A DNA stretch of 32,000 nucleotides from an uncultured Thiomicrospira sp. (GTDB lineage Bacteria > Pseudomonadota > Gammaproteobacteria > CAKMZV01): the NCBI GenBank assembly GCA_965195345.1, contig OZ239628.1, positions 803,339-835,338 of the forward strand, written 5' to 3'. The position numbers and the translations under genes are program-made. Under the pieces are notes generated by a model that did no database searches, was not told the origin of the DNA, and saw only the letters and a list, made by a program, of their open reading frames with translations. This document shows, piece after piece, positions 1-32,000 of this stretch (within the stretch, counting starts at the first letter, position 1; every line of letters starts with the position of its first letter).

Positions 1-1
1 G

Positions 2-3000
2 ACGATTAGCGTTGAGGTTAATCCAGTCAATGATAGACCTGTATTGATGCTATCATTAACCAGTCTTAGCTTAAATGAAGATTTTGGTACCTTTATCATA
101 AATACCACTGCAACCGACGCAGAAGATGGGACACTGTCAGTGAGCGTATCTGGACAGGCTGGCTTGGTAACCACTACTATCACCACTGGTCAAATTACTC
201 TAACTTCCATTGCCCATGCCAACGGAAGAACCACTCTAACTGTAAGCGCTAACGATAGTGAAAACCTCTTCGTAACCGACGAAGTGGTGGTGATTATCAA
301 TGCTGTTAATGATAATCCTGTATTGACGTTATCAACAACCAATCTCAGCCTTAATGAAGACTTTGGCACTTTCATAATCAACACCACTGCCACCGATATA
401 GAAGATGGCGTGTTGCCTTTTACAGTGTCTGGACAAGATGCCAGTATATTCACCGTCACTACCTCCACCAATCAGATAATGCTCACCTCCGTTGCTAATG
501 CCAACGGAATAGTTACACTAACTGTAAGTGCTAACGATAGTGAAAACCTCTCGGCAACCACCGAAGTTGTTGTTGTTGTCAATGCCATCAATGACACACC
601 CACACTTACCTTTTCAACCACTCAATTTAATCTGAATGCAAACTTTACCCCGCAAACAATAGCAACAGCAACAGACGTTGATGATATTTCCTTGCTCCTA
701 ACCTTTGCACTATCTGCAACCGATGTAGTACAAATAACGACGGTTGCTAATCAGTTTATATTAAATCCTATCATCAATGCTTTTGGCGACACAACTATCA
801 CCCTAGCAGTATCTGATGATGATGGTGCACGCTCTTCTTCTCAAATTTTCACAGTGCGCGTTAACACACCCATTGCATCGACAACGCCTACATTAGCCTT
901 ATCAACGCAGAACATCACTTTAGATGAAGACTTTGGTACTTTTATTATCAACACTACTGCAACCGATGCAGAAGATGGGACACTGTCAGTAACCGTATCT
1001 GGACAGGCTGACTTATTAACCACTAATGCTACTACTGGTCAAATTACGCTCACTTCCATTGCCAATGCTAACGGCACAACTACACTTACTGTACGTGCTA
1101 CCGATAGCGGAAACCTTTCCGTTACCACCGAAGTGGTGGTAACCATCAATGCCATCAACGATACTCCGACATTGACTCTTGCGACAACAAATATTACCAT
1201 CGTTGAAAATGCCACTGCTCGTCAAACGATTTCCATTACTGATGTGGCAGATATTGAGGGAAGCACACTTACTTTTTCAGTCATTGCCTCCACTTCTGTA
1301 TTTAGTAGTAATCCTACATCTGTAGTCTCTTTTTCAGACACAAGAATGATAACCTTCAGTAGACAAAGTACGACTGCTCAACTCTATTACACTCTACTGC
1401 CCGATACCACAGGCACTGGCTTCATTCAAATCGCTCTAACAGATGGCATAGACACACAGGTTACAACTGTTACCGTGACTGTGACAGAAGTTAGAACCTC
1501 ACCCCAAATCACTCAAGACTTTAGAACACATCGCTTCTTTGATGCGCGTGCAACACGTGTAGGCGCTGTTGGAGGTGTCTTATTTGCAGCACGAGGTGCA
1601 TTCACTGGATTGCTTGCATCAACCTCTACAGATGGTACAGGGAGTGCTATGAACCAATTAAACTTTGCTCGTTCCTTAGGGGGGAGTTTAGCCGAACTAT
1701 ACACTGAGGAAACATACAACGCTTTATTGGGTTCTGTTTTGGTTGCCAATGGCGCTACAACAGCAGGCTTTGATGATGACCGTTTTTGGCTTGGGCTTAC
1801 CAGTGTACCTAGCTTTTTTGGCGTCACTCTACCAAATCAACTTGACTCAGAAGCCCGTTATTTTTGGTTATCTGGTCAACGGGTATCGCAAGGATTAGGC
1901 GGCGGTACTCGTATAGACGTCCCAGGAGTATACATAGGCTGGGGGCCATCTGCTCCGGGTACTCAGGGTTGTGCTGATCTGATTCTTGGTGCTGAAGTAT
2001 CTGCAGCGTTCAGGCCTTGGGCAAGTGATCAATGCTTTGGAGGTGTTTTTGACGCTTTAAAAGCGTTGATGCAGTTCCCAAATGGCTTACCTACTACCTC
2101 CTCAATGATTGTTCAAGCAAGGTCTCCGATCACACTTATTCGTTTAAGTGGTTATGATCTTGATGGTTCAGATAATACATTGTCTTGGCAAGTCACCGAT
2201 GCATCTGGTGGTGGTATCGCCACTTCCACAGTCTATAGCAGTACTGGCGCACAAACCTTAGAGATTTCTTACACCCCTGTGAGCGGCTTTTCAGGCACTG
2301 CAACCCTTGTTGTAAGCTTAGATGATGGTGATAGTGCTACACAAAATAGTACTGCCCGTGTATTGGTGGTTAATAACACCCCAACTTTAACACTCTCAAC
2401 CAATGTTGTCAGCTTAGATGAAGACTTTACCAGCTTCGTCATTAACACCACTGCAACCGATGCAGAAGGGATAATCGACTTTAGTGTTAGTACAGGAAAC
2501 GGCATTGTTCTTGTAACCACCTCTGCTAATGCAATTACGCTGCAATCACTTGCGAATATAAGTGGTGCTGTAACCTTAACAGTCGTTGCGGATAGTGGTC
2601 TTTTGGCAAATACACAGACGATTAGCGTTGTGGTTAATCCAGTTAACGACACTCCCACGCTGTCTTTATCTGTGACGCAAAGGGCGCTTGCTCAAAACTT
2701 TGGCACTTTCGTCATCAACACCACTGCAACCGATGTGGAATCAGGACCATTGGGCTTTAGTGTCAGCACAGGTAATGGTATTGTCAATGTGACCACCTCT
2801 GTCAATACGATTACTCTGCAATCACTCGCTAATGTCATAGGCGATGTGACGTTAACGGTTAGCGTAAGCGATGGACTATTGACGGCGACACAGTCCATTT
2901 TTATAACCGTTAGTAGACCGTTTACGTTTGAAGTATCGACAAACACTATCGTTTTAGATGAAGATTTTAATACCTTCATTATTAACACCACTGCAACGGC

Positions 3001-5233
3001 TGCAGATGGGACTATATTACCTATTTCAGTGGTGCAGAGCAGCTCTAACCTACTTACATTCAGCACTATAACTGGGCGCATTACCCTTTCATCTATTGCG
3101 AATGCTAATGGAGTAACAACCCTTACCGTGAGTGCGGCTAATCAAAGTGGGCTAACGAACACGACAGAAGTAGCCATTACCATTAATTCCGTTAATGATA
3201 CTCCCACGCTCAGTTTATCAAGTACAAACTTAACCTTGGCATCTAATAGCACTGGTTTGATAACTGCCTTTGTCACGGATGTGGAAACAAGCAGTGCCTC
3301 ATTGATCTTTTCGGTACAACAAAATCCACCTTTGTTGCAGGTGAGTACACAAGGCAATGTCATCGTACTGAGATCGAGTGCTACTGCAGGCTCGACCACT
3401 TTAGTGATCACCGTTACTGATGGCGATGGTTCAAGCGCTTCAGCAACTGCTCGAGTTACTGTTCTATCAGGTGCTTTGAATATTGCTTTAAATGTTAAGC
3501 GCATTGATTTTTCTTGGAACACACTTCCTACAGCAAATCATTACCGCATGCTTAGCAATGTTGATTTGAATGCTGGTGGTGGTTTTGTTGATGCCAGTAG
3601 CGCAGGTTTGGTGTTTGTACCGAATAGCACGAATATTATCAATACCACAGTTTCTGCAACAGTGGATGTAGCACGCTATCTTTCTACGGCTAATGGACCA
3701 CAGTACCTGCTAGAAGCTTGTACCAGTGTGGATAATTCAGCCTGTTCTATTCATGCGCAACAAACCCTGAGCAATATTCAGTTACAGGGATTAATTGGTT
3801 ATTTTAAAGCCTCTTTTGCAGATGAGGGTGTGTTTGGTAGAGCTGTAGCAATAAGCGGTGATGGCAACACATTAGTTGTCGGTGCACCCGGAGAAAATAG
3901 CGACGCCACCGGCATCAATGGTGATCAGACGAACAATAACGCATCTGCCTCTGGTGCAGCCTATGTTTTTGTACGCAACAGTGCAGGCACATGGAGTCAA
4001 CAAGCCTATGTCAAAGCTTCTAATACAGGAGTTTTGGATCAATTTGGCACAGCTGTAGCAATAAATGATGACGGTAACACCATAGTTGTCGGTGCACTTG
4101 GGGAGGACAGTACCGCCACGGGTATCAACGGTGATCAATTAGATAATTCTGCAAGTGACTCTGGTGCAGCCTATGTTTTTGTGCGTAGTAGTACAGGTAC
4201 ATGGAGTCAACAGGCTTACATCAAGGCTTCTAATGCAGAAGCTCTTGATGATTTTGGCAGAACTGTATCGGTCACTGCTGATGGTAATACACTCGCTATT
4301 GGTGCGCCTTTAGAAGACAGTACTGCTACAGGCATTAACGGCGACGAAACAAACAATGGAGCAAGTGGCTCTGGTGCAGCCTATGTTTTTGTGCGTAGTA
4401 CTACGGGCACATGGAGTCAACAAGCTTATATCAAAGCTTCTAATGCAGAAGCTCTTGATGATTTTGGTTTTGCTGTATCGGTGAGCGATGATGGTAATAC
4501 TTTAGTTATTGGGGCATCTTTTGAAGACAGCACCGCCACGGGCATTAACGGCGATCAAACAACTAATAGTGCAAGTGCTTCTGGTGCAGCTTATGTTTTT
4601 GTGCGCAGTGCTACCGACACATGGACGCAAGAAGCCTACATCAAAGCCTCAAACACAGGTGTTAATGATCAATTTGGTTTAGCTACTTCAATTAGTGGTG
4701 ATGGTAACACACTGCTCATCAGCTCAATTGGAGAAGACAGCAATGCCACGGGTATCAACGGTGATCAAACAAACAATGCCGCAAATGGTGCTGGTGCAGC
4801 CTATGTTTTTGTGCGTAGTAGTACAGGCACATGGAGTCAACAAGCCTACATCAAGGCCTCCAATACAGGAGATCAGGATGAATTTGGTAGCGCTCTCTCA
4901 ATTAACAATGATGGTAGTATATTTGCTATCGGTGCTCCTTTTGAAGATAGTGATGTTAGTGGCATCAACGGTGATCAAATAAACAATGATGCATTTCGCG
5001 CTGGTGCAGCCTATGTTTTTGTGCGTAGTAGTACAGGCACATGGAGTCAACGAAGTTACATCAAAGCATCAAACACAGGAGTTTTAGATCGATTTGGTTC
5101 AGCTCTCTCAATAAGCGGTGATGGTAAGACACTCTCTATCGGTGCACCTTTCGAAGATAGCGATGCCACCGGCATTAATGGTGATCAGACGAATAACAAT
5201 GAGTCTGAGGCTGGTGCAGTGTATTTATATTAG
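2..5233 (+). CDS. Gene 1: giant surface protein, 5'-partial; cadherin-like repeats, C-type-lectin-like domain, FN3-like module, 7-repeat FG-GAP propeller
   Basis: The ORF track starts at 44 (M), but the frame is open upstream to nt 2 (TISVEVNPVNDRPVLMLSLTSLSLNEDFG), which is repeat sequence, so the true start lies before the window. Ends GAVYLY* (tag 5231-5233). Confidence 0.95.
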   Translation, partial: TISVEVNPVNDRPVLMLSLTSLSLNEDFGTFIINTTATDAEDGTLSVSVSGQAGLVTTTITTGQITLTSIAHANGRTTLTVSANDSENLFVTDEVVVIINAVNDNPVLTLSTTNLSLNEDFGTFIINTTATDIEDGVLPFTVSGQDASIFTVTTSTNQIMLTSVANANGIVTLTVSANDSENLSATTEVVVVVNAINDTPTLTFSTTQFNLNANFTPQTIATATDVDDISLLLTFALSATDVVQITTVANQFILNPIINAFGDTTITLAVSDDDGARSSSQIFTVRVNTPIASTTPTLALSTQNITLDEDFGTFIINTTATDAEDGTLSVTVSGQADLLTTNATTGQITLTSIANANGTTTLTVRATDSGNLSVTTEVVVTINAINDTPTLTLATTNITIVENATARQTISITDVADIEGSTLTFSVIASTSVFSSNPTSVVSFSDTRMITFSRQSTTAQLYYTLLPDTTGTGFIQIALTDGIDTQVTTVTVTVTEVRTSPQITQDFRTHRFFDARATRVGAVGGVLFAARGAFTGLLASTSTDGTGSAMNQLNFARSLGGSLAELYTEETYNALLGSVLVANGATTAGFDDDRFWLGLTSVPSFFGVTLPNQLDSEARYFWLSGQRVSQGLGGGTRIDVPGVYIGWGPSAPGTQGCADLILGAEVSAAFRPWASDQCFGGVFDALKALMQFPNGLPTTSSMIVQARSPITLIRLSGYDLDGSDNTLSWQVTDASGGGIATSTVYSSTGAQTLEISYTPVSGFSGTATLVVSLDDGDSATQNSTARVLVVNNTPTLTLSTNVVSLDEDFTSFVINTTATDAEGIIDFSVSTGNGIVLVTTSANAITLQSLANISGAVTLTVVADSGLLANTQTISVVVNPVNDTPTLSLSVTQRALAQNFGTFVINTTATDVESGPLGFSVSTGNGIVNVTTSVNTITLQSLANVIGDVTLTVSVSDGLLTATQSIFITVSRPFTFEVSTNTIVLDEDFNTFIINTTATAADGTILPISVVQSSSNLLTFSTITGRITLSSIANANGVTTLTVSAANQSGLTNTTEVAITINSVNDTPTLSLSSTNLTLASNSTGLITAFVTDVETSSASLIFSVQQNPPLLQVSTQGNVIVLRSSATAGSTTLVITVTDGDGSSASATARVTVLSGALNIALNVKRIDFSWNTLPTANHYRMLSNVDLNAGGGFVDASSAGLVFVPNSTNIINTTVSATVDVARYLSTANGPQYLLEACTSVDNSACSIHAQQTLSNIQLQGLIGYFKASFADEGVFGRAVAISGDGNTLVVGAPGENSDATGINGDQTNNNASASGAAYVFVRNSAGTWSQQAYVKASNTGVLDQFGTAVAINDDGNTIVVGALGEDSTATGINGDQLDNSASDSGAAYVFVRSSTGTWSQQAYIKASNAEALDDFGRTVSVTADGNTLAIGAPLEDSTATGINGDETNNGASGSGAAYVFVRSTTGTWSQQAYIKASNAEALDDFGFAVSVSDDGNTLVIGASFEDSTATGINGDQTTNSASASGAAYVFVRSATDTWTQEAYIKASNTGVNDQFGLATSISGDGNTLLISSIGEDSNATGINGDQTNNAANGAGAAYVFVRSSTGTWSQQAYIKASNTGDQDEFGSALSINNDGSIFAIGAPFEDSDVSGINGDQINNDAFRAGAAYVFVRSSTGTWSQRSYIKASNTGVLDRFGSALSISGDGKTLSIGAPFEDSDATGINGDQTNNNESEAGAVYLY
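1495..2100 (+). other. C-type-lectin-like domain in gene 1
   Basis: NFARSLGGSLAELYTEETYNALLGSV..DDRFWLGLTS..YFWLSGQ..GVYIGWGPSAPGTQGCADLIL..RPWASDQC resembles the CTLD pattern (GG.LA.., WiGL, W.dG, W..g.P, C..L...W...C). Only the inner Cys pair is evident. Confidence 0.6.
3491..3775 (+). other. FN3-like module in gene 1, conserved between stalk and head in all seven genes (others start near 11509, 14218, 17461, 22187, 26908, 30611)
   Basis: NVKRI(D/N)FSW....ANHYRMLSNVDLNAGGGFVDASSA..VF.PNSTNIINTTVSA.VDVARYLS..-GPQYLL(Q/E)AC.SVDNS.CS is present in every copy. The FN3 assignment comes from the ..F.W....ANHYR.. layout and position. Confidence 0.55.
3784..5230 (+). other. FG-GAP beta-propeller head of gene 1 (7 repeats)
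   Basis: Seven (S/A)x(S/N)xDG(N/S)xxxx(G/S)Axx(E)(D/N)S motifs, each followed by GAAYVFVRSSTGTWSQQAYIKASNTG..D.FG; last unit truncated at GAVYLY*. Confidence 0.85.
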
Positions 5234-5483
5234 AATACGTATATAGCTAAAAGAGAACTAAAATTGCTTGATTACCCATACATTATGTATTCATCAGGAA
5301 GACGGGCATACAGCTTTTCTATTTAACGTTTATTGCTTTAAATGTTATAAACTGCTTGCATGTTTCATCATACTTTAATTTATAATCAATCAAATTGTCA
5401 CAGGCAAAATGTGAGCTTCTATCACATACGCAAGCTGTAGTGAAATTGTAATTGCATAATTAAATACATTAAGGTGAATTGAT

Positions 5484-8400
5484 ATGGGATATATACAGCG
5501 CTGGGCATTTCTGTTGTTGCTTGTTTTTCTGTCAGCTTGTGGTGGTGGTGATGGCGACACAATACCTCCGTCTACTAACACAACACCAACTTTAAGTCTC
5601 TCTGTCAATGCCGTAACGCTTGATGAAGATTTTGGTACCTTTATCATCAACACCACTGCCACCGACGTAGAAGATGGGACGCTGTCAGTGACCGTGTCTG
5701 GACAGGCTGGCTTGCTAACCACTAATGCTACTACTGATCAAATTACGCTCACTTCCATTGCCAATGCTAACGGAACAACTACACTCACTGTAAGTGCTAC
5801 CGATAGTGGCGCTCTTACAGTCTCCACCGAAGTGGTTGTTATTGTCAATGCCGCCAATGATACGCCCACACTTACCTTTTCAACCACTCAATTTAGTCTA
5901 AATGCAAATTTCATGCCTCAGACAATAGCAACAGCAACAGACGTTGATGATGCTTCCTTGCTCCTAACCTTTGCACTATCTGCAACCGATGTAGTACAAA
6001 TAACGACAGTTGCTAATCGGTTTATATTAAATCCTATCACTAATGCTTTTGGCGAGACAACCATCACTCTAACAGCAACTGATAGCAGCGGCAATCAGTC
6101 ATCTCAACGTTTTACAGTGCATGTTAACGCATCCATTGCATCGACAACACCTACATTAGCCTTATCAACGCAACGTATCACTTTAGATGAAGATTTTGGC
6201 ACTTTCGTCATCAACACCACTGCAAGTGATGCAGAAGATGGCGTGCTTCCCGTTGCAGTGACTGGACAAGACGCCAGTCTATTCGCCGTAACCACTTCTA
6301 CCGATCAGATAATACTTACCTCCGTTGCTAATGCCACCGGCATAGCCACGCTTACAGTAAGCATTGTTGATAGCGGAAATCTCTCCGCTACCACCGAAGT
6401 GGTTGTTGTTGTCAATGGCATCAATGATAGTCCTACATTGACACTATCAACAACGAACCTCAGCCTCAGTGAAGATTTTGGCACTTTCGTCATCAACACC
6501 ACTGCAAGTGATGCAGAAGATGGCGTGCTTCCCGTTGCAGTGACTGGACAAGACGCCAGTCTATTCGCCGTAACCACTTCTACCGATCAGATAATACTTA
6601 CCTCCGTTGCTAATGCCACCGGCATAGCCACGCTTACAGTAAGCATTGTTGATAGTGGAAATCTCTCCGCTACCACCGAAGTGGTTGTTGTTGTCAATGG
6701 CATCAATGATAGTCCTACCTTGACACTATCAACAACGAACCTCAGCCTCAGTGAAGATTTTGGCACTTTCGTCATCAACACCACTGCAAGTGATGCAGAA
6801 AATGGCAGGCTTCCCGTTGCAGTGACTGGACAAGATGCCAGTCTATTCGCCGTAACCACTTCTACCGATCAGATAATACTTACCTCCGTTGCTAATGCCA
6901 ACGGAACAGCCACACTCACTGTAAGCATTGTTGATAGTGGAAATCTCTCCGCTACCACCGAAGTGGTTGTTGTTGTCAATGGCATCAATAGTGCACCTGC
7001 ATTGACGCTATCAACAACGAACCTCAGCCTCAGTGAAGATTTTGGCACTTTCGTCATCAACACCACTGCCACCGATGTAGAAGATGGCGTGCTTCCCGTT
7101 GCAGTGACTGGACAAGATGCCAGTTTATTCGCCGTAACCACTTCTACCGATCAGATAATACTTACCTCCGTTGCTAATGCCAACGGAACAGCCACACTCA
7201 CTGTAAGCATTGTTGATAGTGGAAATATCTCCGCTACCACCGAAGTGGTTGTTGTTGTCAATGCCATCAATGATAGTCCTACATTGACACTATCAACAAC
7301 GAACCTCAGCCTCAGTGAAGATTTTGGCACTTTCGTCATCAACACCACAGCAAGTGATGCAGAAGATGGCGTGCTTCCCGTTGCAGTGACTGGACAAGAT
7401 GCCAGTCTATTCGCCGTAACCACTTCTACCGATCAGATAATACTTACCTCCGTTGCCAATGCCAACGGAACAGCCACGCTTACAGTAAGCATTGTTGGTA
7501 GCGGAAATCTCTCCGCTACCACCGAAGTGGTTGTTGTTGTCAATGCCATCAATGATAGTCCTACATTGACACTATCAACAACGAACCTCAGCCTCAGTGA
7601 AGATTTTGGCACTTTCATCATCAACACCACTGCCACCGATGCAGAAGATGGCGTGCTTCCCGTTGCAGTGACTGGACAAGATGCCAGTTTATTCGCCGTA
7701 ACCACTTCTACCGATCAGATAATACTTACCTCCGTTGCTAATGCCAACGGCATAGCCACACTTACAGTAAGCATTGTTGATAGTGGAAATCTCTCCGCTA
7801 CCACCGAAGTGGTTGTTGTTGTCAATGCCATCAATGATAGTCCTACATTGACACTATCAACAACGAACCTCAGCCTTAGTGAAGATTTTGGCACTTTCGT
7901 CATCAACACCACTGCAAGTGATGCAGAAGATGGCGTGCTTCCCGTTGCAGTGACTGGACAAGATGCCAGTCTATTCGCCGTAACCACTTCTACCGATCAG
8001 ATAATACTTACCTCCGTTGCCAATGCCAACGGAACAGCCACGCTTACAGTAAGCATTGTTGGTAGCGGAAATCTCTCCGCTACCACCGAAGTGGTTGTTG
8101 TTGTCAATGCCATCAATGATAGTCCTACATTGACACTATCAACAACGAACCTCAGCCTCAGTGAAGATTTTGGCACTTTCATCATCAACACCACTGCCAC
8201 CGATGCAGAAGATGGCGTGCTTCCCGTTGCAGTGACTGGACAAGATGCCAGTTTATTCGCCGTAACCACTTCTACCGATCAGATAATACTTACCTCCGTT
8301 GCTAATGCCAACGGCATAGCCACACTTACAGTAAGCATTGTTGATAGTGGAAATCTCTCCGCTACCACCGAAGTGGTTGTTGTTGTCAATGCCATCAATG

Positions 8401-13250: not shown

Positions 13251-13514
13251 AAATAAGTTAAAGTAGTAACTTCAAAAGTCTAAAAGTTTTCCAAAAATAT
13301 AAGCAAATTATTTTTGCAAGAGCACATGTTATTCCATTAGCTTTTATTCTATCGTTATGATTCTTATTGCTCTGAATTATTTCAGTTATTAGAGTAATTT
13401 GTAGTCTATAATGTCACGATTATTGACTCACTACATAGTGAGTATTTACTATTGCTATCTATGTGTAAATCACATGATGTTATCTTGTACTAACTTTCAC
13501 ACTGTGAGGATAAA

Positions 13515-15986: not shown

Positions 15987-16235
15987 AAGACGTATATAGC
16001 TAAAAGGCAATTAGAGTTGTTTGATTACTCGAGCATTATGTGTTCATCAGGAGAACAGGCGCACAACTTTCTTACTTAACGTTTCGCTGTAAATGTTATG
16101 AACTGTTTGCGAATTTTCTCATGCTTTAATTTGTAATGATTGAGATTGCTGGATTGTAGATATATTGCTTTTATCAAACACATAAACTGTTGTGATAATT
16201 GTGATTTCATAGTTAAAAATAAAATATAGGCCTAA

Positions 16236-19202: not shown

Positions 19203-19449
19203 ATACGTATATAGCTAAAAGGCAATTAGAGTTGCTTGATTAACCCACCATTATGTATTCATCAGGAGAACAGGCGCACAACTTTTTTACTTAATGTTTC
19301 GCTGTAAATGTTATGAACTGTTTGCATGTTTTCTCATGCTTTAATTTATAATGATTAGGATTGCTGGATTGTAGACATACTGCTTTTATCAAACACATAA
19401 ACTGTTGTGATAATTGTGATTTCATAGTTAAAATAAAATATAGGACTAA
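19203..19449 (+). repeat. Conserved ~247-bp intergenic module between paralogs (also 15987-16235 and 23923-24170; partial at 5234-5400 and 28635-28794)
   Basis: Shared ACGTATATAGCTAAAAGGCAATTAGAGTTG.TTGATTA...CGCTGTAAATGTTATGAACTGTTTGC...AAACACATAAACTGTTGTGATAATTGTGATTTCATAGTTAAAA. Confidence 0.9.
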
Positions 19450-23922: not shown

Positions 23923-24170
23923 AAGACGTATATAGCTAAAAGGCAATTAGAGTTGCTTGATTACCCCACCATTATGTGTTCATCAGGAGAACAGGCACAC
24001 AGCTTTTTTACTTAATGTTTCGCTGTAAATGTTATGAACTGTTTGCATGTTTTCTCATGCTTTAATTTATAATGATTAGGATTGCTGGATTGTAGACATA
24101 CTGCTTTTATCAAACACATAAACTGTTGTGATAATTGTGATTTCATAGTTAAAATAAAATATAGGACTAA

Positions 24171-27100
24171 ATGAAAATGAACCATTTAAAGTGCTGGGGA
24201 TTTCTATTATCACTCGTTTTTTTATCTGCCTGTGGCGGTGGGGGTGGCGGCGATTCAACACCTCCGTCTACTAATACAGCACCAAGTTTAAGTCTCTCTG
24301 TCAATGCCCTAATGCTTGATGAAGATTTTGGCACTTTTGTCATCAATACCACTGCAACCGATGCAGAAGATGGGACACTGTCCGTAACTGTATCTGGACA
24401 GGCTGGTTTGCTAACCACTGATGTCACCACTGGTCGAATTACCCTAACTTCCATTGCCAATGCTAACGGCACAGCTACACTTACTGTACGTGCTACCGAT
24501 AGCGGAAACCTCTCTGCTACCACCGAAGTGGTTGTCACCATTAACGCCATCAATGATGCCCCGACATTTACTCTTGCTACAACAAACATTACTATCGTTG
24601 AAAATGCCACTGCTCGTCAAACGATTTCCATTCCCAATGTAGTCGATGTTGACGGAAACGCACTGACCTTTTCAGTCATTGCCTCCACTTCTTTATTTAG
24701 TACTAACCCAACACCTGTTGTGTCTTTTTCAGATACAAGGGTGATAATCTCCGATACACAACCTACAGCTCAACTCTATTACAGCCTACTGCCCGACGTC
24801 ACAGGCTCTGGCTTCATTCAAATTGCTTTAACAGATGGCATAGAGACCCAACGTACGACCGTTACTGTTACTGTTACAGAAGTTAGAACTCCACCCCAAA
24901 TTACCCAAGACTTTAGAACACATCGCTTCTTTGATGCGCGTGCAACGCGTGTAGGCGCTGTTGGAGGTGTCTTATTTGCAGCACGAGGTGCATTTACTGG
25001 ATCGACTGAAACAACCTCAACAGATGGTACGGGGAATTTTAGTAATCAATTAAACTTTGTCCGTTCCTTAGGAGGGAGTTTAGCCGAACTTTACACTGAG
25101 GAAACATACAACGCTTTATTGGGTTCTGTTTTGGTTTCCAATGGCACTGCAACAGCAGACTTTAATGATGATCGTTTTTGGCTTGGACTCACTGATACAC
25201 CCAATGCTTTTGGCGCTTCTGTGTCAGATCAATCTGCCTCAGTAGAGCGTTATTTTTGGTTGTCTGGTCAGCGGGTGTCACAAGGATTAGGTATTTCTCG
25301 TATAGAAGTTCCAGGAGTGTACATAGGCTGGGGGGCATCCGCCCCAACTGCAAGCAATCAGCCCTGTGCTAATTTGATTCTTGGTGCCGAAGTATCTGCA
25401 GGTCTCAGACCTTGGGCAAGTACTGGGTGCGATGGATCATCATCTGCTACTTTCAATGTGCTAAAAGCGTTGATGCAGTTCCCAAATGGCTTACCTACTA
25501 CTTCTTCAATGATTGTTCAAGCGAGGCTCCCAATCACACGTATTCGTTTAAGTGGTTATGATCTTGATGGTTCAGATAATACATTGTCTTGGCAAGTTAC
25601 CGATGCATCTGGTGGTGGTATCACTACTTCCACAGTCTATAGCAGTACTGGCGCACAAACCTTAGAGATTTCTTACACTCCTGTGAGCGGCTTTTCAGGA
25701 ACTGCGACCCTTGTTGTAAGCTTAGATGATGGTGATAGTGCTACGCAAAATAGTACTGCCCGTGTATTGGTGGTTAATAACACACCAACTTTAACACTCT
25801 CAACCAATGTTGTCAGCTTAGATGAAGACTTTACCAGCTTCGTCATTAACACCACTGCAACCGATGCAGCAGGGATAATCGACTTTAGTGTTAGCACAGG
25901 AAACGGTATTGTTTTTGTAACCACCTCTGCTAATGCGATTACACTGCAATCACTTTCGAATATAAATGGTGCTGTAACCTTAACAGTCGTTGCGGATAGT
26001 GGTCTTTTGACAAATACACAGACGATTAGCGTTGTGGTTAATCCAGTTAACGACACTCCCACGCTGTCTTTATCTGTGACGCAAAGGGTGCTTGCTCAAA
26101 ACTTTGGCACTTTCGTCATCAACACCACTGCAACCGATGTGGATTCAGGCCCATTGGGCTTTAGTGTCAGTACAGGTAATGGCATTGTTAATGTAACAAC
26201 CTCTGTCAATACGATTACTCTGCAATCACTCGCTAATGTCATAGGCGATGTGACGTTAACGGTTAGCGTAAGCGATGGACTATTGACGACGACACAGTCC
26301 ATTTTTATAACCGTTAGTAGACCGTTTACGTTTGAAGTATCGACAAACACTATCGTTTTAGATGAAGATTTTAATACCTTCATTATTAACACCACTGCAA
26401 CGGCTGCAGATGGGACTATATTACCTATTTCAGTGGTGCAGAGCAGTTCTAACCTACTTACATTCAGCACTATAACTGGGCGCATTACCCTTTCATCTAT
26501 TGCGAATGCTAATGGAGTAACAACTCTTACCGTGAGTGCGGCTAATCAAAATGGACTAACGAACACGACAGAAGTAGCGATTACCGTTAATTCCGTTAAT
26601 GACACTCCCACACTCAGCTTATCAACTACAAACTTAACTTTCTCACCTAATGGAACCGGTTTTATAACTGCTTTTGGTGCGGATGTGGAAACAAGCAGTG
26701 CCTCATTGATCTATTCTGTACAACAAAATCCATCTTTGTTGCAGGTGAGTACACCAGGCAATGTCATTGTACTGAGAGCGGATGATACTACAGGTTCGAC
26801 AACTTTAGTGATAACCGTTACTGATGGCGGTGGTTCAAGCGCTTCAGCAACTGCTCGAGTTACTGTTCTATCAGGTGTTTTGAATGCTTTGAGCGTAAGT
26901 TTAAATGTTAAACGCATTAACTTTTCTTGGAACACACTTCCTACAGCAAACCATTACCGTATGCTTAGCAATGTCGATTTGAACGCTGGTGGTGGTTTTG
27001 TTGATGCCAGTAGCGCAGGTTTGGTGTTTATACCGAATAGCACGAATATTATCAATACTACAGTCTCTGCAACAGTGGATGTGGCACGCTATCTTTCTAC

Positions 27101-28634
27101 GGCTGATGGACCACAGTATCTGCTGCAAGCTTGTAGTAGTGTGGACAATTTCGCTTGTTCTAATCTTGCACAACAATCTCTGAGCAATATTCAGTTAGAG
27201 GGATTGATTGGTTACTTCAAAGCTTCTAATACGGAAATGGGAGATGAATTTGGTGAGGGTGTCGCAATAAGTGGTGATGGCAACACATTAGTTGTCGGTG
27301 CACCCGGAGAAGATAGCGACGCCACCGGCATCAACGGCGATGAATCAGACAATTCTAGAAGTAACTCTGGTGCAGCCTATGTTTTCGTGCGCAGTAGTAC
27401 AGGCAGCTGGCGTCAACAAGCATACCTTAAAGCCTCTGATGCAGCAGATGATGATGGGTTTTCTTCAAGAGCTGTAACAATAAGCAATGACGGTAATACT
27501 ATAGTTGTTGGTGCACCACGCAAGGATGTTGCCGCTCCTGGCGGTAGCCCCCAGGGCAACACTGGTGCAGCCTATGTTTTCGTGCGCAGTAGTACCGGCA
27601 GCTGGCGTCAACAGGCTTTCATCAGCGCTTCTAATCTAAATGCCAATGATCAGTTTGGAACAGCTGTATCGGTTGCTGCTGATGGTAATACACTCGCTAT
27701 CGGTGCGCCTTCAAAAACTGTACGTACTATAGATTCTATGGGTCAATCTGTGAGCAGAGCTACTGCTGGTACAGCCTATGTTTTTGTACGCAGTAGTACA
27801 GATTCATCATGGAGTGAGCAAGCTATATTGACAGCACCTTTTGTAACGAGTTTTGCTTTTTTTGGTAATGCTGTATCGATGAGTGGTGATGGTAATACCA
27901 TGGTCGTCGGTGCAGACGGTGACCAAAGTACTGGCACGGGTATCGGCAGTGATGAATCCACCATTAATGATTTTGGTACCGGTGCTGCCCATGTTTTTGT
28001 ACGTAGTAGTACGGGTAGATGGAGTCGGCAAGAATATTTTAAAGCCTCAAATGCAGAAGGTACTGATCTCTTTGGTACAGCTGTATCGATGAGCGGTGAT
28101 GGTAATACCATGGTCGTTGGTGCACCAGGGGAAGACAGCAATGCCACGGGTGTCGACGGGGATCAAGCAAATAATGGTAGTGGTGTTAATTCAAATTCTG
28201 GTGCAGCCTATGTTTTTGTGCGCAGTAGTACGGGCACATGGACGCAAGAAGCCTATATCAAAGCCTCAAATACAGGAGATGGTGATGTGTTTGGTTCTGT
28301 TCTCTCAATGAGCAATGATGGTAATGCGTTCGTTGTTGGTGCACCAAATGAGGACAGCAATGCCACGGGAATCAACGGGGGGGAAGCAGGTGGTGCTAAT
28401 AACGCTGGTGCAGTCTATCTTTTTGTGCGCAGTGGTACGACATGGCGTCAACAAGCCTATACCAAAGCCTCAAACACAGGAGCTGATGATGCGTTTGGTG
28501 ACTCTGTTTCAATAAGCAGTGATGGTAAAACGTTTGCTGTTGGCGCATCTGGCGAAAATGGCAGCGCCACTGGTATCAATGGCGATCAAACAGACGATAG
28601 TCAAGATAACGCTGGTGCAGTGTATTTGTATTAG
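24171..28634 (+). CDS. Gene 6: giant lipoprotein (1487 aa), near-duplicate of gene 5
   Basis: Complete ORF; N-terminal signal and lipobox identical to gene 5; ends GAVYLY*. Confidence 0.95.
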   Translation: MKMNHLKCWGFLLSLVFLSACGGGGGGDSTPPSTNTAPSLSLSVNALMLDEDFGTFVINTTATDAEDGTLSVTVSGQAGLLTTDVTTGRITLTSIANANGTATLTVRATDSGNLSATTEVVVTINAINDAPTFTLATTNITIVENATARQTISIPNVVDVDGNALTFSVIASTSLFSTNPTPVVSFSDTRVIISDTQPTAQLYYSLLPDVTGSGFIQIALTDGIETQRTTVTVTVTEVRTPPQITQDFRTHRFFDARATRVGAVGGVLFAARGAFTGSTETTSTDGTGNFSNQLNFVRSLGGSLAELYTEETYNALLGSVLVSNGTATADFNDDRFWLGLTDTPNAFGASVSDQSASVERYFWLSGQRVSQGLGISRIEVPGVYIGWGASAPTASNQPCANLILGAEVSAGLRPWASTGCDGSSSATFNVLKALMQFPNGLPTTSSMIVQARLPITRIRLSGYDLDGSDNTLSWQVTDASGGGITTSTVYSSTGAQTLEISYTPVSGFSGTATLVVSLDDGDSATQNSTARVLVVNNTPTLTLSTNVVSLDEDFTSFVINTTATDAAGIIDFSVSTGNGIVFVTTSANAITLQSLSNINGAVTLTVVADSGLLTNTQTISVVVNPVNDTPTLSLSVTQRVLAQNFGTFVINTTATDVDSGPLGFSVSTGNGIVNVTTSVNTITLQSLANVIGDVTLTVSVSDGLLTTTQSIFITVSRPFTFEVSTNTIVLDEDFNTFIINTTATAADGTILPISVVQSSSNLLTFSTITGRITLSSIANANGVTTLTVSAANQNGLTNTTEVAITVNSVNDTPTLSLSTTNLTFSPNGTGFITAFGADVETSSASLIYSVQQNPSLLQVSTPGNVIVLRADDTTGSTTLVITVTDGGGSSASATARVTVLSGVLNALSVSLNVKRINFSWNTLPTANHYRMLSNVDLNAGGGFVDASSAGLVFIPNSTNIINTTVSATVDVARYLSTADGPQYLLQACSSVDNFACSNLAQQSLSNIQLEGLIGYFKASNTEMGDEFGEGVAISGDGNTLVVGAPGEDSDATGINGDESDNSRSNSGAAYVFVRSSTGSWRQQAYLKASDAADDDGFSSRAVTISNDGNTIVVGAPRKDVAAPGGSPQGNTGAAYVFVRSSTGSWRQQAFISASNLNANDQFGTAVSVAADGNTLAIGAPSKTVRTIDSMGQSVSRATAGTAYVFVRSSTDSSWSEQAILTAPFVTSFAFFGNAVSMSGDGNTMVVGADGDQSTGTGIGSDESTINDFGTGAAHVFVRSSTGRWSRQEYFKASNAEGTDLFGTAVSMSGDGNTMVVGAPGEDSNATGVDGDQANNGSGVNSNSGAAYVFVRSSTGTWTQEAYIKASNTGDGDVFGSVLSMSNDGNAFVVGAPNEDSNATGINGGEAGGANNAGAVYLFVRSGTTWRQQAYTKASNTGADDAFGDSVSISSDGKTFAVGASGENGSATGINGDQTDDSQDNAGAVYLY
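24882..25496 (+). other. C-type-lectin-like domain in gene 6
   Basis: Nearly identical to the gene 5 domain at +4721 bp, with a few substitutions (SSSLERYFW to SASVERYFW, GWGSSAP to GWGASAP, NEPC to NQPC). Confidence 0.6.
27195..28631 (+). other. FG-GAP beta-propeller head of gene 6 (7 repeats)
   Basis: Seven cores from AISGDGNTLVVGAPGED to SISSDGKTFAVGASGEN. Confidence 0.85.
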
Positions 28635-28794
28635 AATACGTATATAGCTAAAAGGCAATTAGAGTTGCTTGATTACTCCACCATTATGTATTCATCAGAA
28701 GAACAGGCGCACAACTTTTTTACTTAACGTTTATTGCTGTAAATGTTATAAACTGTTGTGGTAATTATGATTTCATAGTGAGAATATAAGGTTA

Positions 28795-31700
28795 ATGAAA
28801 ATGAAACATTTAAAACGTTGGGGATTTCTACTACTATTTGTCTTTCTAACTGCCTGTGGGGATGACACAACACCTTTGTCTACTAATATTAACACAACAC
28901 CAAACTTAAGTCTCTCTGTCAATACCTTAACACTTGATGAAGATTTTGGCACTTTTATCATCAATACCACTGCTACTGATGCAGAAGATGGGATACTGCC
29001 AGTAACCGTATTTGGACAGGCTGGCTTGCTAACCACTGATGTCACTACTGGCCAAATTACGCTCACTTCCATTGCTAATGCTACCGGCATAGCTACGCTC
29101 ACAGTGCGTGTTGTTGATAGCGAAAACCTCCCCGTTTCCACCGAAGTGGTGGTGACCGTAAACGCCATCGATGATACGCCTGTTTTGACGTTATCAACGA
29201 CTAACCTCAGTCTCAGTGAAGATTTTGGCACTTTTATTATCAACACTACAGCAACTGATGTAGAGGATGGTGTATTATCTTTTACAGTATCTGGTCAAGA
29301 TACAAGTGTATTAACAGTCAGAACTTCCACCAATCAGATAATACTCACCTCCGTTGCTAATGCCACCGGAACAGTCACACTCACTGTAAGCGCTACCGAC
29401 AGTGAGGCTCTTACAGCTAACACCGAAGTGGTGGTGATCATCAATGACATCGATGATACTCCTGTGCTGACAATATCAACAACGAACCTCAGCCTCAGTG
29501 AAGACTTTGGCACTTTTATCATCAACACCACTGAGGGTGATATAGAAGATGGTGTATTACCTTTTACAGTATCTGGTCAAGATGCAAGTATATTAACAGT
29601 TAGCACTGCTATCAATCAGATAATACTCACCTCCGTTGCTAATGCCAACGGAACAGTCACACTCACTGTAAGTGCTACTGATAGTGAGGATCTTACAGTC
29701 TCCACCGAAGTGGTGGTGATTATTAATGCCGTCAATGATACGCCTGTATTGACGCTATCAACAACCAACCTTAGCCTCAGTGAAGACTTTGGCACTTTCA
29801 TCATCAACACCACTGCAAGTGATGCAGAAGATGGCGTGCTTCCCGTTGCAGTGACTGGACAAGATGCCAGTCTATTCGCCGTAACCACTTCTACCGATCA
29901 GATAATACTTACCTCCGTTGCCAATGCCAACGGAACAGCCACGCTCACTGTAAGCATTGTTGATAGCGGTAACCTCTCCACTTCCACTGAAGTGGTGGTT
30001 GTTGTCAACGCCATCAACGATACGCCTGTATTGACGCTATCAACATCTAACCTCAGTCTCGATGAGGATTTTGGCACTTTCATCATCAACACCACTGCAT
30101 CTGATGCAGAAGATGGTGTGTTATCTTTTACGGTATCTGGTCAAGATGCAAGTGTATTAACAGTCAGCACTTCTATCAATCAGATAATGCTCACTTCCGT
30201 TGCTAATGCTAATGGAACAATGACTCTTACAGTCAGTGCAACCGATCAAGGTGGACTAACGACAACGGCAAAAATAACTATTGTCATTAATCCTGTTGAT
30301 GACAATCCAATACTTAATTTATCAGCAACAAACTTTAACTTACTAATGGATACAGCTGCGGTGCTCACTGCCTTTGGTGTAGATGTGGATTCAAGCAGTG
30401 CCGTGTTGGTCTATTCTGCACAGCAAGAAACACCTCTGTTAAATCAGATACAAATAGCAAGCAATACCATCGCGCTGGGAGCAGGTAATACTTTAGGCTC
30501 AACCACTTTGGTAATCACCGTCACTAATGACAGAGGATTAAGTACTTCTGCAACCGCTCGAGTTACTGTTTTATCTGCTATTTCGAATACTTTTTTAAAT
30601 GTAAGTTTAAATGTTAAGCGGATTAACTTTTCTTGGAGTATGCTTCCTGCAGCCAATCATTACCGCATGCTCAGCAATGTGAATTTGGCTACAGCGCGTG
30701 GCTTTGTTGATGCCAGTAGTGCACATGCAGTGTTTGCACCGAATAGCACCAATATTATCAATACTACAGTCTCTGCGACAGTAAATGTGGCGCGTTATCT
30801 TTCTACGGCTGATAGACCAGAGTATCTGCTACAAAGTTGTACGAGTGTGGATAATTCAGCCTGTTCTACTTATGCACAAGCAGCCCTGAGCAATACTCAA
30901 ATAAAGGGATTGATTGGTACTTTCAGACCCACTTGGCCAGACTTTGGAGATCAATTTACTGAAAGTCTGACATTCAATGGCGCTGGTAATATTTTTGTTG
31001 CTGGTGCACCTTTTGAAAGCAGTGACTTTACTGGCATCAACACATTTGTTTTAGTAGGTTCAAACAATAGGGCTAGGGCCTCTGGCGCAGCCTATATTTT
31101 TGAGCTTAGTAGCACTGGCACGTGGAGTCAACGAGCTTACCTCAAAGCCTCTAATACAGGAGTTGGTGATTTCTTTGGTAGAAGTCTGGCAATAAGTGGC
31201 GACGGCAATACTTTAGCTGTTGGGGCAACTTTGGAAGACGGCACCTCCACTGGCGTAAACGGGTATCAATTTAGCGATAATGAACTTCAATCCGGTGCAG
31301 TTTATGTTTTTGTGCGTAGTAGTGCCGGTGCATGGAGCCAGCAAGCGTACATAAAAGCTTCTAATACAGAAATGTATGAACAATTTGGTAGAGCTCTAAC
31401 AGTCAGCAGTAACGGCAATACCATCTTTGTTGGTGTCCCTCGTGAGGCTACTGGATTAGACGGCGATCAAACAAGAAACGGTGCACCTCAATCTGGCGGA
31501 GTCTATGTTTTTGAGCGCAACAGTTCGAGCGTATGGAGCCAAACAGCTTTAATCAAAGCTTCTAATTTACAGGCTGGTGACAATTTTGGTGAGGCTGTAT
31601 CGGTAAGCAGTGACGGCAATGTTTTACTTGTTGGTGCCCCTTTTGAAGCCAGTCTCGCTACTGGAATTAACGGAGATCAAACAAACAATGCTGGAAATGA

Positions 31701-32000
31701 CACTGGCGCAGCTTATCTTTTTGTCCGTAGTAGCACTGGTTCGTGGAACCAACAAGCCTACATCAAAGCCTCAAATCCAGAGGAATTTGATGTTTTTGGT
31801 GCCAGAGTAGCGATAAGTGGTGATGGTAATACCCTAGCCGTTGGAGCGGATTCAGAAGATAGCAACGCCACTGGAATCAATGGCGATCAAACGAACAATG
31901 ATGCACTTCAATCCGGTGCAGTCTATGTTTATGCTCGTAGTGGTACCGATACATGGGCACAACAAGCCTACATCAAAGCCTCTAATACAGACGCATACGA
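28795..32000 (+). CDS. Gene 7: paralog, 3'-partial; lipoprotein signal, about 6 cadherin-like repeats, FN3-like module, first ~5 FG-GAP repeats before the window ends
   Basis: Read directly: atgaaaatgaaacatttaaaacgttgg.. = MKMKHLKRWGFLLLFVFLTACGDDTTPLSTN. AAGG lies upstream of the ATG. The frame stays open to nt 32000 (..QAYIKASNTDAY) with no stop, which explains its absence from the ORF list. Confidence 0.93.
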   Translation, partial: MKMKHLKRWGFLLLFVFLTACGDDTTPLSTNINTTPNLSLSVNTLTLDEDFGTFIINTTATDAEDGILPVTVFGQAGLLTTDVTTGQITLTSIANATGIATLTVRVVDSENLPVSTEVVVTVNAIDDTPVLTLSTTNLSLSEDFGTFIINTTATDVEDGVLSFTVSGQDTSVLTVRTSTNQIILTSVANATGTVTLTVSATDSEALTANTEVVVIINDIDDTPVLTISTTNLSLSEDFGTFIINTTEGDIEDGVLPFTVSGQDASILTVSTAINQIILTSVANANGTVTLTVSATDSEDLTVSTEVVVIINAVNDTPVLTLSTTNLSLSEDFGTFIINTTASDAEDGVLPVAVTGQDASLFAVTTSTDQIILTSVANANGTATLTVSIVDSGNLSTSTEVVVVVNAINDTPVLTLSTSNLSLDEDFGTFIINTTASDAEDGVLSFTVSGQDASVLTVSTSINQIMLTSVANANGTMTLTVSATDQGGLTTTAKITIVINPVDDNPILNLSATNFNLLMDTAAVLTAFGVDVDSSSAVLVYSAQQETPLLNQIQIASNTIALGAGNTLGSTTLVITVTNDRGLSTSATARVTVLSAISNTFLNVSLNVKRINFSWSMLPAANHYRMLSNVNLATARGFVDASSAHAVFAPNSTNIINTTVSATVNVARYLSTADRPEYLLQSCTSVDNSACSTYAQAALSNTQIKGLIGTFRPTWPDFGDQFTESLTFNGAGNIFVAGAPFESSDFTGINTFVLVGSNNRARASGAAYIFELSSTGTWSQRAYLKASNTGVGDFFGRSLAISGDGNTLAVGATLEDGTSTGVNGYQFSDNELQSGAVYVFVRSSAGAWSQQAYIKASNTEMYEQFGRALTVSSNGNTIFVGVPREATGLDGDQTRNGAPQSGGVYVFERNSSSVWSQTALIKASNLQAGDNFGEAVSVSSDGNVLLVGAPFEASLATGINGDQTNNAGNDTGAAYLFVRSSTGSWNQQAYIKASNPEEFDVFGARVAISGDGNTLAVGADSEDSNATGINGDQTNNDALQSGAVYVYARSGTDTWAQQAYIKASNTDAY

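Follow-up and report, generated by a model that had tools for sequence, protein, structure and literature searches.

A tandem array of stalked FG-GAP_2 propeller lipoproteins in an uncultured Thiomicrospira sp., a candidate set of surface binding proteins

The window analysed here is a 32,000-nt stretch of contig OZ239628.1 (assembly GCA_965195345.1, positions 803,339 to 835,338) from an uncultured Thiomicrospira sp., and it is nearly filled by a tandem array of seven large open reading frames (ORFs) of one lipoprotein family, all on the + strand. We lean, with modest confidence, towards the reading that this array encodes surface-displayed, lipid-anchored, multivalent binding proteins whose diversity arises from gene duplication, slippage of repeats and exchange among paralogs. 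Each protein starts with a type-II signal peptide that contains a lipobox, continues with a short Gly/Pro/Ser/Thr tether, 2-21 rod-forming cadherin/immunoglobulin (Ig)-like tandem-95 domains and a β-sandwich neck, and ends with a predicted seven-bladed FG-GAP_2 β-propeller (the head); in three genes, an accessory domain lies mid-stalk. An earlier note, made from the letters of this DNA, had proposed an adhesin or recognition repertoire. Given a paralogous lipoprotein family with a cadherin/Ig-like stalk and an FG-GAP head, this is still the most reasonable reading.

In the proposed mechanism, the N-terminal lipid would anchor the protein in the outer membrane and the rod would place the propeller some 10 to 100 nm away from the cell. 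The head would bind an external, probably repetitive ligand, for example a glycan or a surface polymer, and its binding face would be formed by seven conserved B-C loops (E-D-S-x-A-T-G-I-N-G) together with the surrounding variable residues. Near-identical 282-bp stalk units would allow unequal crossing-over and thereby change rod length, genes would be duplicated and lost, and heads would be replaced or diverge through exchange among paralogs. In the resulting repertoire, head specificity would vary at least as much as reach does. The seven genes (g1-g7) have the following layout in window coordinates.

2-5233, + strand: g1, 3' part with the 5' end cut by the window; at least 1743 amino acids (aa), at least nine stalk repeats, insert at 1484-2116, head at 3800-5230
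5484-13250, + strand: g2, 2588 aa; lipobox LSAC, 21 stalk repeats at 5586-11492, neck, head at 11820-13247
13515-15986, + strand: g3, 823 aa; lipobox, (Gly)8 tether, two stalk repeats and a partial one at 13650-14210, neck at 14211-14528, head at 14529-15983
16236-19202, + strand: g4, 988 aa; lipobox, (Gly)9 tether, four stalk repeats, head at 17772-19199
19450-23922, + strand: g5, 1490 aa; lipobox, one stalk repeat, insert at 20155-20799, about 4.5 further repeats, head at 22492-23919
24171-28634, + strand: g6, 1487 aa; insert at 24876-25520, head at 27213-28631
28795 to beyond 32000, + strand: g7, first 1068 codons; lipobox LTAC, six stalk repeats, head from about 30922, four of seven blades visible

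These coordinates agree with the description of seven consecutive same-strand genes set 160-264 bp apart, the successive spacers being 250, 264, 249, 247, 248 and 160 bp. All seven reading frames are intact. The proteins of g2-g6 match public gene calls on the 1,920,693-bp contig residue for residue (g3 is P0001), and full-length g7 corresponds to P0009, which has 1169-1171 aa depending on the start methionine and extends about 310 bp beyond the window. Searches of the window for tRNAs and Rfam families found none.

The head is the feature common to the whole array. Matches to Pfam FG-GAP_2 (PF14312) have expectation (E) values of 1e-48 to 1e-57, with seven stretches in each of g1-g6 and four in the truncated g7, and all seven proteins score 108-190 bits against a gathering threshold of 23 bits. 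A hidden Markov model (HMM) of the blade finds seven blades in 11/11 paralogs, and the last blade stops at HMM position 58 of 70 in ten of them. The C-terminal sequence is GAVYLY in five genes and GAAYLY in g2; full-length g7 ends in GEVYLY, beyond the window. Seven FG-GAP repeats followed by GA(V/A)YLY, as noted earlier for every visible C-terminus, are confirmed in 6/6 cases.

An AlphaFold2 (AF2) model of mature g3, computed from a 65-sequence alignment, has a mean predicted local distance difference test (pLDDT) score of 89.7, with the head blocks mostly above 90. It comprises seven 70-aa repeats of four strands each, except that blade 7 has only strands A-C. The strands of the g3 head read F-G-x-x-V-x-I (A), T-L-x-V-G-A (B), G-A-x-Y-V-F (C) and W-x-Q-Q-A-Y-I (D), with one further strand (G-Y-F in LIGYFKAS) ahead of blade 1. 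The model is most simply read as a closed propeller, in which this leading strand would complete blade 7 as its fourth strand; the reading rests on repeat phase and DSSP assignment. Such an arrangement would account for the end of every protein directly after strand C, at GAVYLY.

The consensus blade carries D-x-F-G at strand A and V-G-A-(P/x) after strand B, which is the integrin-type FG...GAP/cage motif (Chouhan et al., 2011). The E-D-S-x-A-T-G-I-N-G motif of the B-C loop is conserved in all blades and across phyla, and we rejected an enzymatic role for the head because this motif is equally conserved in all seven blades, unlike a single active site. The blades of a single head share 53% identity, a pattern closer to tandem-repeat propeller lectins than to integrins.

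Structural comparison of the head yields matches among predicted structures. Searched against BFVD, the g3 head aligns over about 500 columns with a root-mean-square deviation of about 3 Å in the best matches, 24-28% identity and E values down to 1e-33. The best matches are giant-virus (Mimivirus LCMiAC01, annotated as collagen triple-helix repeat), prasinovirus, Megaviridae and some phage FG-GAP proteins, all as predicted structures. This likeness to giant-virus proteins could stem from an exchange of genes between giant viruses and bacteria, or from a head-on-stalk design common to both. No chain in the PDB matched the head at E ≤ 0.01 by phmmer or with the 65-sequence profile, the sole match being a cadherin to the stalk, and a Foldseek search of the whole g3 model against the PDB returned Ig/cadherin strings with low template modelling scores, which are uninformative for the head. 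PF14312 has been listed among the repeat families without a structure, with integrin αV (5ffg_A) as the best modelling template (PMC8078820), and we found no solved structure of a PF14312 protein.

A close relative of the organism allowed us to follow the array over a short evolutionary distance. LepA encoded on contig_40 of ERZ25066422 is 99% identical to LepA of the window's genome, whose next relatives are 77% identical and whose matches in cultured taxa lie at about 66-70%, placing the organism in a deep gammaproteobacterial lineage. All comparisons of flanks and turnover are drawn from this contig. It carries a collinear array of seven genes, encoding 2244, 716, 2645, 815, 1485, 1499 and 1179 aa; three of these are called r815, r1485 and r1499 below, after their lengths in amino acids. 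By blastn, g1 corresponds to the 3' 5.4 kb of the 2645-aa gene (93% nucleotide identity), g3 with its flanks to r815 (85%), and the 3' part of g4 through g7 to the 815- to 1179-aa genes (90%). By this alignment, g2 and one of g3 and g4 are extra in the window and absent from the relative. Since the relative lacks two of the window's genes, gene content turns over quickly. Sequence also changes unevenly along a gene: g3 and its orthologue in the relative are 90% identical at the N-terminus and 88% in the neck, and 66% in the head. Both gene content and heads therefore differ between near-identical strains.

The same comparison bears on the extent of the array, which had been thought to continue past both window edges. 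The leftward extension holds, but on the right the g7 orthologue is the last family gene in the relative, and at most two family genes precede the g1 orthologue there. To judge from the relative, the array probably ends with g7 on the right, and on the left it would hold the remainder of g1 and no more than a few genes. The upstream border in the relative consists of a porin and an aldehyde dehydrogenase gene. Downstream (locus L080, 13715-20496) lie a 79-aa ORF, a patatin-like lipase, an FGE-sulfatase-family gene and three ORFs without a Pfam match, followed by lepA and lepB.

What is constant about the head is its size alone; in sequence it is the most divergent region of the paralogs. Head identity is 47-80% across the genes of the window, their orthologues and further paralogs, except for three orthologous pairs at 84-98%; the neck is 49-95% identical, and over their first 130 residues the window genes share 63-99% identity. 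The earlier picture of a constant head with varying reach and accessory domains therefore stands for head size, but not for head sequence. The pair g5 and g6 illustrates this at the DNA level: their first ~1000 codons, from signal peptide to neck, are mostly 95-100% identical, whereas their heads are 78-93% identical; g6 is a recent duplicate of g5 and differs from it almost only in the head. The g2 head, for its part, is 80% identical to the g5 and g6 heads, while the stalks are entirely different.

Variation within the head is concentrated in particular loops. Over 133 blades, entropy peaks at HMM positions 7-10, 12, 15, 31-32, 36 and 45-51, where positions 7-12 correspond to the D-A loop and 31-51 to the B-C loop; hardly any variation occurs in strands C and D or in the A-B and C-D hairpins. 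For rates of nonsynonymous (dN) and synonymous (dS) substitution, loop classes were defined by structure and not by variability. In the pairs g5/r1485, g6/r1499, g5/g6 and g2/g5, dN is 0.16-0.32 in the D-A and B-C loops and 0.024-0.05 in the A-B and C-D loops, and it is 3-12 fold higher in the former class in most pairs. Within the g2/g5/g6 clade, dN/dS is 0.8-1.5 in the D-A/B-C loops as opposed to about 0.17-0.45 in the A-B/C-D loops.

The stalk consists of ~94-aa repeats that score as NCBIfam 'tandem-95' and Pfam Big_9/Cadherin_4. Counted with an HMM built from one repeat, the full repeats number at least nine in g1, 21 in g2, two in g3, four in g4, about 5.5 each in g5 and g6 (one before the insert and about 4.5 after it) and six in g7, and every protein has one extra partial repeat before the neck. 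The range proposed earlier, from two repeats in g3 to about 21 in g2, is reproduced by this count. Against NF012211, which has a cut-off of 90 bits, g1 scores 147.5 and g5 112.1; g3 (28.3) and g4 (51.8) fall below it because they have too few repeats. Big_9 is above threshold in g1, g2, g5 and g7. In the Foldseek search of the whole AF2 model against the PDB, the g3 stalk matched chains of cadherin extracellular (EC) domains, titin and an RTX-adhesin extender (6xi1).

The g2 stalk contains a run of highly similar units at the DNA level.

6188-11209, + strand: about 18 near-identical 282-bp units inside the g2 stalk, from DNA comparison

Units 3-13 and 15-20 are 85-100% identical in nucleotide sequence, units 8 and 10 being 100% identical. 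Units 2 and 14 represent a second repeat type, are 92% identical to each other, and are each followed by a run of near-identical units. This pattern suggests recent duplication of a higher-order block and a hotspot of expansion and contraction. The domain junctions carry the motif N-x-[IVL]-[NDS]-[DS]-x-P, with 17 copies in g2, and the Ca2+ linker of cadherins is DxNDNxP. Because the junctions carry this cadherin-like N-x-I/V-N-D-x-P, they probably bind Ca2+, by analogy, and would stiffen the rod.

The accessory domain is a ~215-aa insert in the middle of the stalk (residues 236-450 of g5), which occurs only in g1, g5 and g6.

1484-2116, + strand: insert in g1, from sequence comparison
20155-20799, + strand: insert in g5, from sequence comparison
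24876-25520, + strand: insert in g6, from sequence comparison

The window copies are 79-98% identical. An exhaustive HMMER search of 1.84 billion representative proteins gave one real relative, P0121, a paralog in the same genome; P0122 was discarded as a low-complexity false match. The earlier note had called this domain lectin-like, and its presence in g1, g5 and g6 holds, but the lectin identity is sub-threshold: Lectin_C is the sole Pfam family listed, at 15.1 bits against a gathering threshold of 22.6 (E = 0.039). Among PDB profile matches, the best is a C-type lectin, 6a7s_B, aligned in the same register but short of significance (E = 0.71). The insert contains FWLGLTD and a C-x20-C pair around W-A-S; as read from the sequence, there is no EPN or QPD before the Cys, and W-A-S stands in place of WND. 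An AF2 model from a shallow four-sequence alignment reached a pLDDT of 35.8. A C-type-lectin-like fold is plausible from these sequence features and implies no lectin activity. The relative's 2645-aa gene carries two insert copies. Half-repeats flank the insert, and the module may nest inside a split stalk repeat.

The N-termini of g2-g7 combine a charged n-region and a hydrophobic core with a lipobox, L-S/T-A-C, whose Cys lies at residue 19-26, our criterion for a lipoprotein being a charged n-region, a hydrophobic h-region and a lipobox [LVI][ASTVI][GAS]C. The claim that these are lipobox proteins is confirmed for all six visible starts, g2-g7; the start of g1 lies outside the window, and its orthologue has a lipobox. 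Visible starts are preceded by Shine-Dalgarno-like sequences, for example AGGA in the spacer at 15987-16235. A tract of (GGY)n codons directly follows the lipobox Cys codon, with these positions in g3-g6.

13593-13616, + strand: in-frame (GGY)n tract in g3
16299-16325, + strand: in-frame (GGY)n tract in g4
19513-19530, + strand: in-frame (GGY)n tract in g5
24234-24251, + strand: in-frame (GGY)n tract in g6

Among paralogs and orthologues, it comprises 1-9 Gly codons (nine in g4, eight in g3 versus seven in r815, and six in g5 versus four in r1485). This microsatellite encodes a flexible tether of variable length and does not act as a frameshift switch.

Five of the six spacers are alike, and three contain a promoter-like sequence.

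5234-5483, 15987-16235, 19203-19449, 23923-24170 and 28635-28794, + strand: five of the six spacers, mutually alike
13251-13514, + strand: spacer before g3, unrelated to the other five; it accompanies the different signal-peptide start of g3, MLKNSEKK...
16171-16199, 19386-19414 and 24107-24135, + strand: promoter-like TTATCA-17-TG-GATAAT in three spacers, by consensus match only

The spacers contain no long homopolymer tract or invertible promoter that could act as an on/off switch, and their inverted repeats are weak only. There is no recombinase among the window genes. Antisense ORFs of 157-236 aa on the - strand lie inside g3, g4 and g7 (13544-14146, 16232-16774, 16784-17494 and 28773-29246) and are most likely by-products of repetitive coding sequence.

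The wider PF14312 family puts the array in perspective. The neck and head of g3 are 50-59% identical to proteins of Planctomycetota, Myxococcota, Flavobacteriaceae, Burkholderiales and others, and significant family matches exceed 7,800. All counts from this word-index protein search are lower bounds, and long proteins may be under-indexed: the search missed the insert although g5 and g6 are in the collection, and g2, g5 and g6 are absent from the g3 match list. At 77 loci in other genomes, almost all family ORFs have seven blades, most end in GAVYLY or a close variant, and about half have a lipobox. Since seven blades and GAVYLY recur across these loci, from Myxococcota to Gammaproteobacteria, they are constants of the family and not specific to this locus. 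Typical members at the 77 loci have 600-700 aa and no stalk; stalked versions were found only in the window's lineage and in two ~2-Mb Gammaproteobacteria metagenome-assembled genomes (MAGs; OZ255843.1 and OZ255827.1), with up to 31 repeats and 4,272 aa. The earlier note had singled out the clustered arrangement as what stands out, but the search of other genomes recovered tandem arrays of four to six copies in several of them, which makes clustering less singular. The family occupies, as lower bounds, about 2.7% of the window's 1.92-Mb genome (at least 12 paralogs), 3.2% of OZ255843.1 and 5.5% of OZ255827.1, and it is broadly distributed in free-living environmental bacteria.

Among neighbouring genes across the 77 loci, only GGDEF/EAL proteins and ABC transporters recur, at chance frequency, and no conserved exporter or partner was found. 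In the arrays of OZ255843.1 and OZ255827.1 (loci L001, L002, L005, L009 and L072), a recurrent 1280-aa gene and a 187-aa ORF without a Pfam match lie between family genes. The former encodes four PKD domains, an S8 subtilase and a proprotein-convertase P domain, and both are absent from the window. At another locus (L020; OZ242267.1, 107773-129206), six tandem family genes encode a C-terminal region with Flg_new_2 and Filamin-like matches after the seven-blade domain and end in TLGSYK; because these proteins continue past the seven blades, the head is not C-terminal in that lineage. A phage origin was considered and rejected, the family being rare in IMG/VR (three related loci, L081-L083).

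Several known systems resemble parts of this architecture. Other PF14312 lipoproteins share the neck and seven-blade head, the GAVYLY end, in many cases a lipobox, and small tandem arrays. Unlike the typical stalkless members of 600-700 aa, the window genes add 2-21 tandem-95 domains and an orphan insert. The integrin α propeller likewise has seven four-stranded blades with FG at strand A and GA(P) after strand B; the heads described here differ from it in having no Dx[DN]xDG loops, β subunit or transmembrane segment and no sequence or profile match to solved integrins. Propeller lectins such as fungal PVL and Photorhabdus PLL resemble the heads in their repetitive blades, with no sequence relationship shown. 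In PVL and PLL, each blade contributes an equivalent site, leading to multivalent sugar binding (PMC8023676, PMC12203525). FG-GAP proteins of giant viruses and prasinoviruses also combine a stalk and a head, some with collagen-like repeats; they differ in being viral, in their stalk type and in being available as predicted structures only.

Giant Ig-repeat adhesins (LapA, SiiE, MpIBP and the Aeromonas RTX adhesin 6xi1) are comparable in having a long Ig/cadherin-like rod with binding modules near the far end, and intimin and invasin carry a C-type-lectin-like tip on an Ig stalk. However, the giant adhesins, intimin and invasin are single genes with type I secretion or autotransporter-like export, whereas the window holds a gene family with an N-terminal lipid anchor and no β-barrel. 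The window proteins have no RTX/HemolysinCabind match and end with the propeller. The Mycoplasma Vlp/Vsa proteins are headless; their repeat length sets shielding, and they switch by promoter homopolymer tracts or site-specific inversion. Similar to the window, they comprise tandem lipoprotein genes with conserved signal and 5' regions and variable in-frame repeats that set length, but the window proteins have a globular head and neither type of switch was found here.

All parts of these proteins come from known families (lipobox, tandem-95/Big_9, FG-GAP_2), and multigene families of repeat-bearing surface lipoproteins are already known. What is new is the strongly stalked, arrayed variant, of which we found no description in the literature, the evidence that the predicted ligand face is the fast-changing part, and the large genomic investment in small genomes.

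Several observations weigh against multivalent surface binding as the function of the array. A lipobox does not give the location of a lipoprotein (PMC7857515), and neither the window nor the flanks of the relative's array contain Slam, a type II secretion system or another exporter. None of the seven heads matches the integrin Ca2+ motif Dx[DN]xDG; their A-B loop instead reads S-x-S/G-x-D-G-N-T. The ligand face of integrins is built from the D-A and B-C loops, and Ca2+ is held by the A-B loops on the other side of the propeller (PMC3192720, PMC8023676); this topology rule, not coordinates, places the variable D-A/B-C loops on a predicted ligand face. The dS values are also higher in the variable loops, so that segment exchange, relaxed constraint and alignment noise are inseparable from positive selection. 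Finally, our literature search found no functional study of, or ligand for, any PF14312 protein. A stronger form of the binding hypothesis is a combinatorial surface-recognition system in a lineage of uncultured Gammaproteobacteria with ~2-Mb genomes, in which a single ancient seven-fold propeller scaffold would bear hypervariable loops on its ligand face. Its heads, recombined among paralogs and set on Ca2+-stiffened rods of ~10 to >100 nm whose length repeat slippage adjusts, would offer many specificities at several heights. We consider this form doubtful; if it were true, the system would be a bacterial counterpart of the diversified adhesion and immune-type receptor families of eukaryotes and would probably decide partner or host range.

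Two other functions would keep the proteins at the surface. The array could encode a protective coat, in which dense rods of mixed length shield the outer membrane from phages, predators, immune factors and enzymes, and variation of the heads would serve evasion instead of binding, in the manner of the Mycoplasma Vlp/Vsa lipoproteins. Tandem lipoprotein genes with conserved 5' regions and variable repeat numbers, the large family share of small genomes and exposed loops that change fast between close strains all fit a coat, yet there is no on/off switch (neither a long homopolymer tract nor an invertible promoter), typical family members are stalkless, and a seven-fold loop motif kept across phyla favours a conserved binding or metal site over a mere spacer; on this balance, a coat seems unlikely. 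Rather less likely still is the capture of nutrients or particles by 'forager' lipoproteins that pass polysaccharides or glycoproteins to uptake systems, with heads adapted to each substrate. Its appeal lies in the existence, within this supercluster, of propeller lectins that bear repeated sites (PVL, tachylectin; PMC8023676), the broad distribution of the family in free-living environmental bacteria and the secreted subtilases with PKD domains between family genes in two other MAGs. It is opposed by the lack of any TonB-dependent receptor, SusC/D-like pair or glycoside hydrolase adjoining the array in the window or the relative, and of any conserved neighbour beyond chance families across the 77 loci.

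A cadherin EC domain is about 4.5 nm long, and rods of 6-21 Ig-like domains of that length, with up to 31 domains in relatives, far exceed the periplasm; this is why we infer surface display, and why periplasmic or structural outer-membrane lipoproteins that are never surface-exposed would be a most improbable explanation, all the more as rapid loop diversification is atypical of housekeeping envelope proteins. That the array is an assembly artefact or a decaying pseudogene cluster is barely credible. Highly repetitive DNA may in principle be misassembled, and the g2 repeat count (5 kb of 282-bp units) is the least certain number. Nevertheless, the seven frames are intact, the six visible starts have signal peptides and Shine-Dalgarno-like sites, the source contig spans 1.92 Mb, and an artefact is unlikely because the independent assembly of a close relative has a collinear array.

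Taken as surface binding proteins, the members of the array form a natural series for separating specificity from tether length, as g5 and g6 have the same stalk and different heads, whereas g2 and g5 have related heads and different stalks. Should the heads prove to be multivalent lectins, they would offer a large and so far unused supply of glycan-binding modules. The PF14312 family reaches its most elaborate form at this locus and in its relatives, where it takes up 2.7-5.5% of ~2-Mb genomes with rods of up to 31 domains, and the proteins are likely determinants of the partners to which these uncultured bacteria attach or by which they are recognised.

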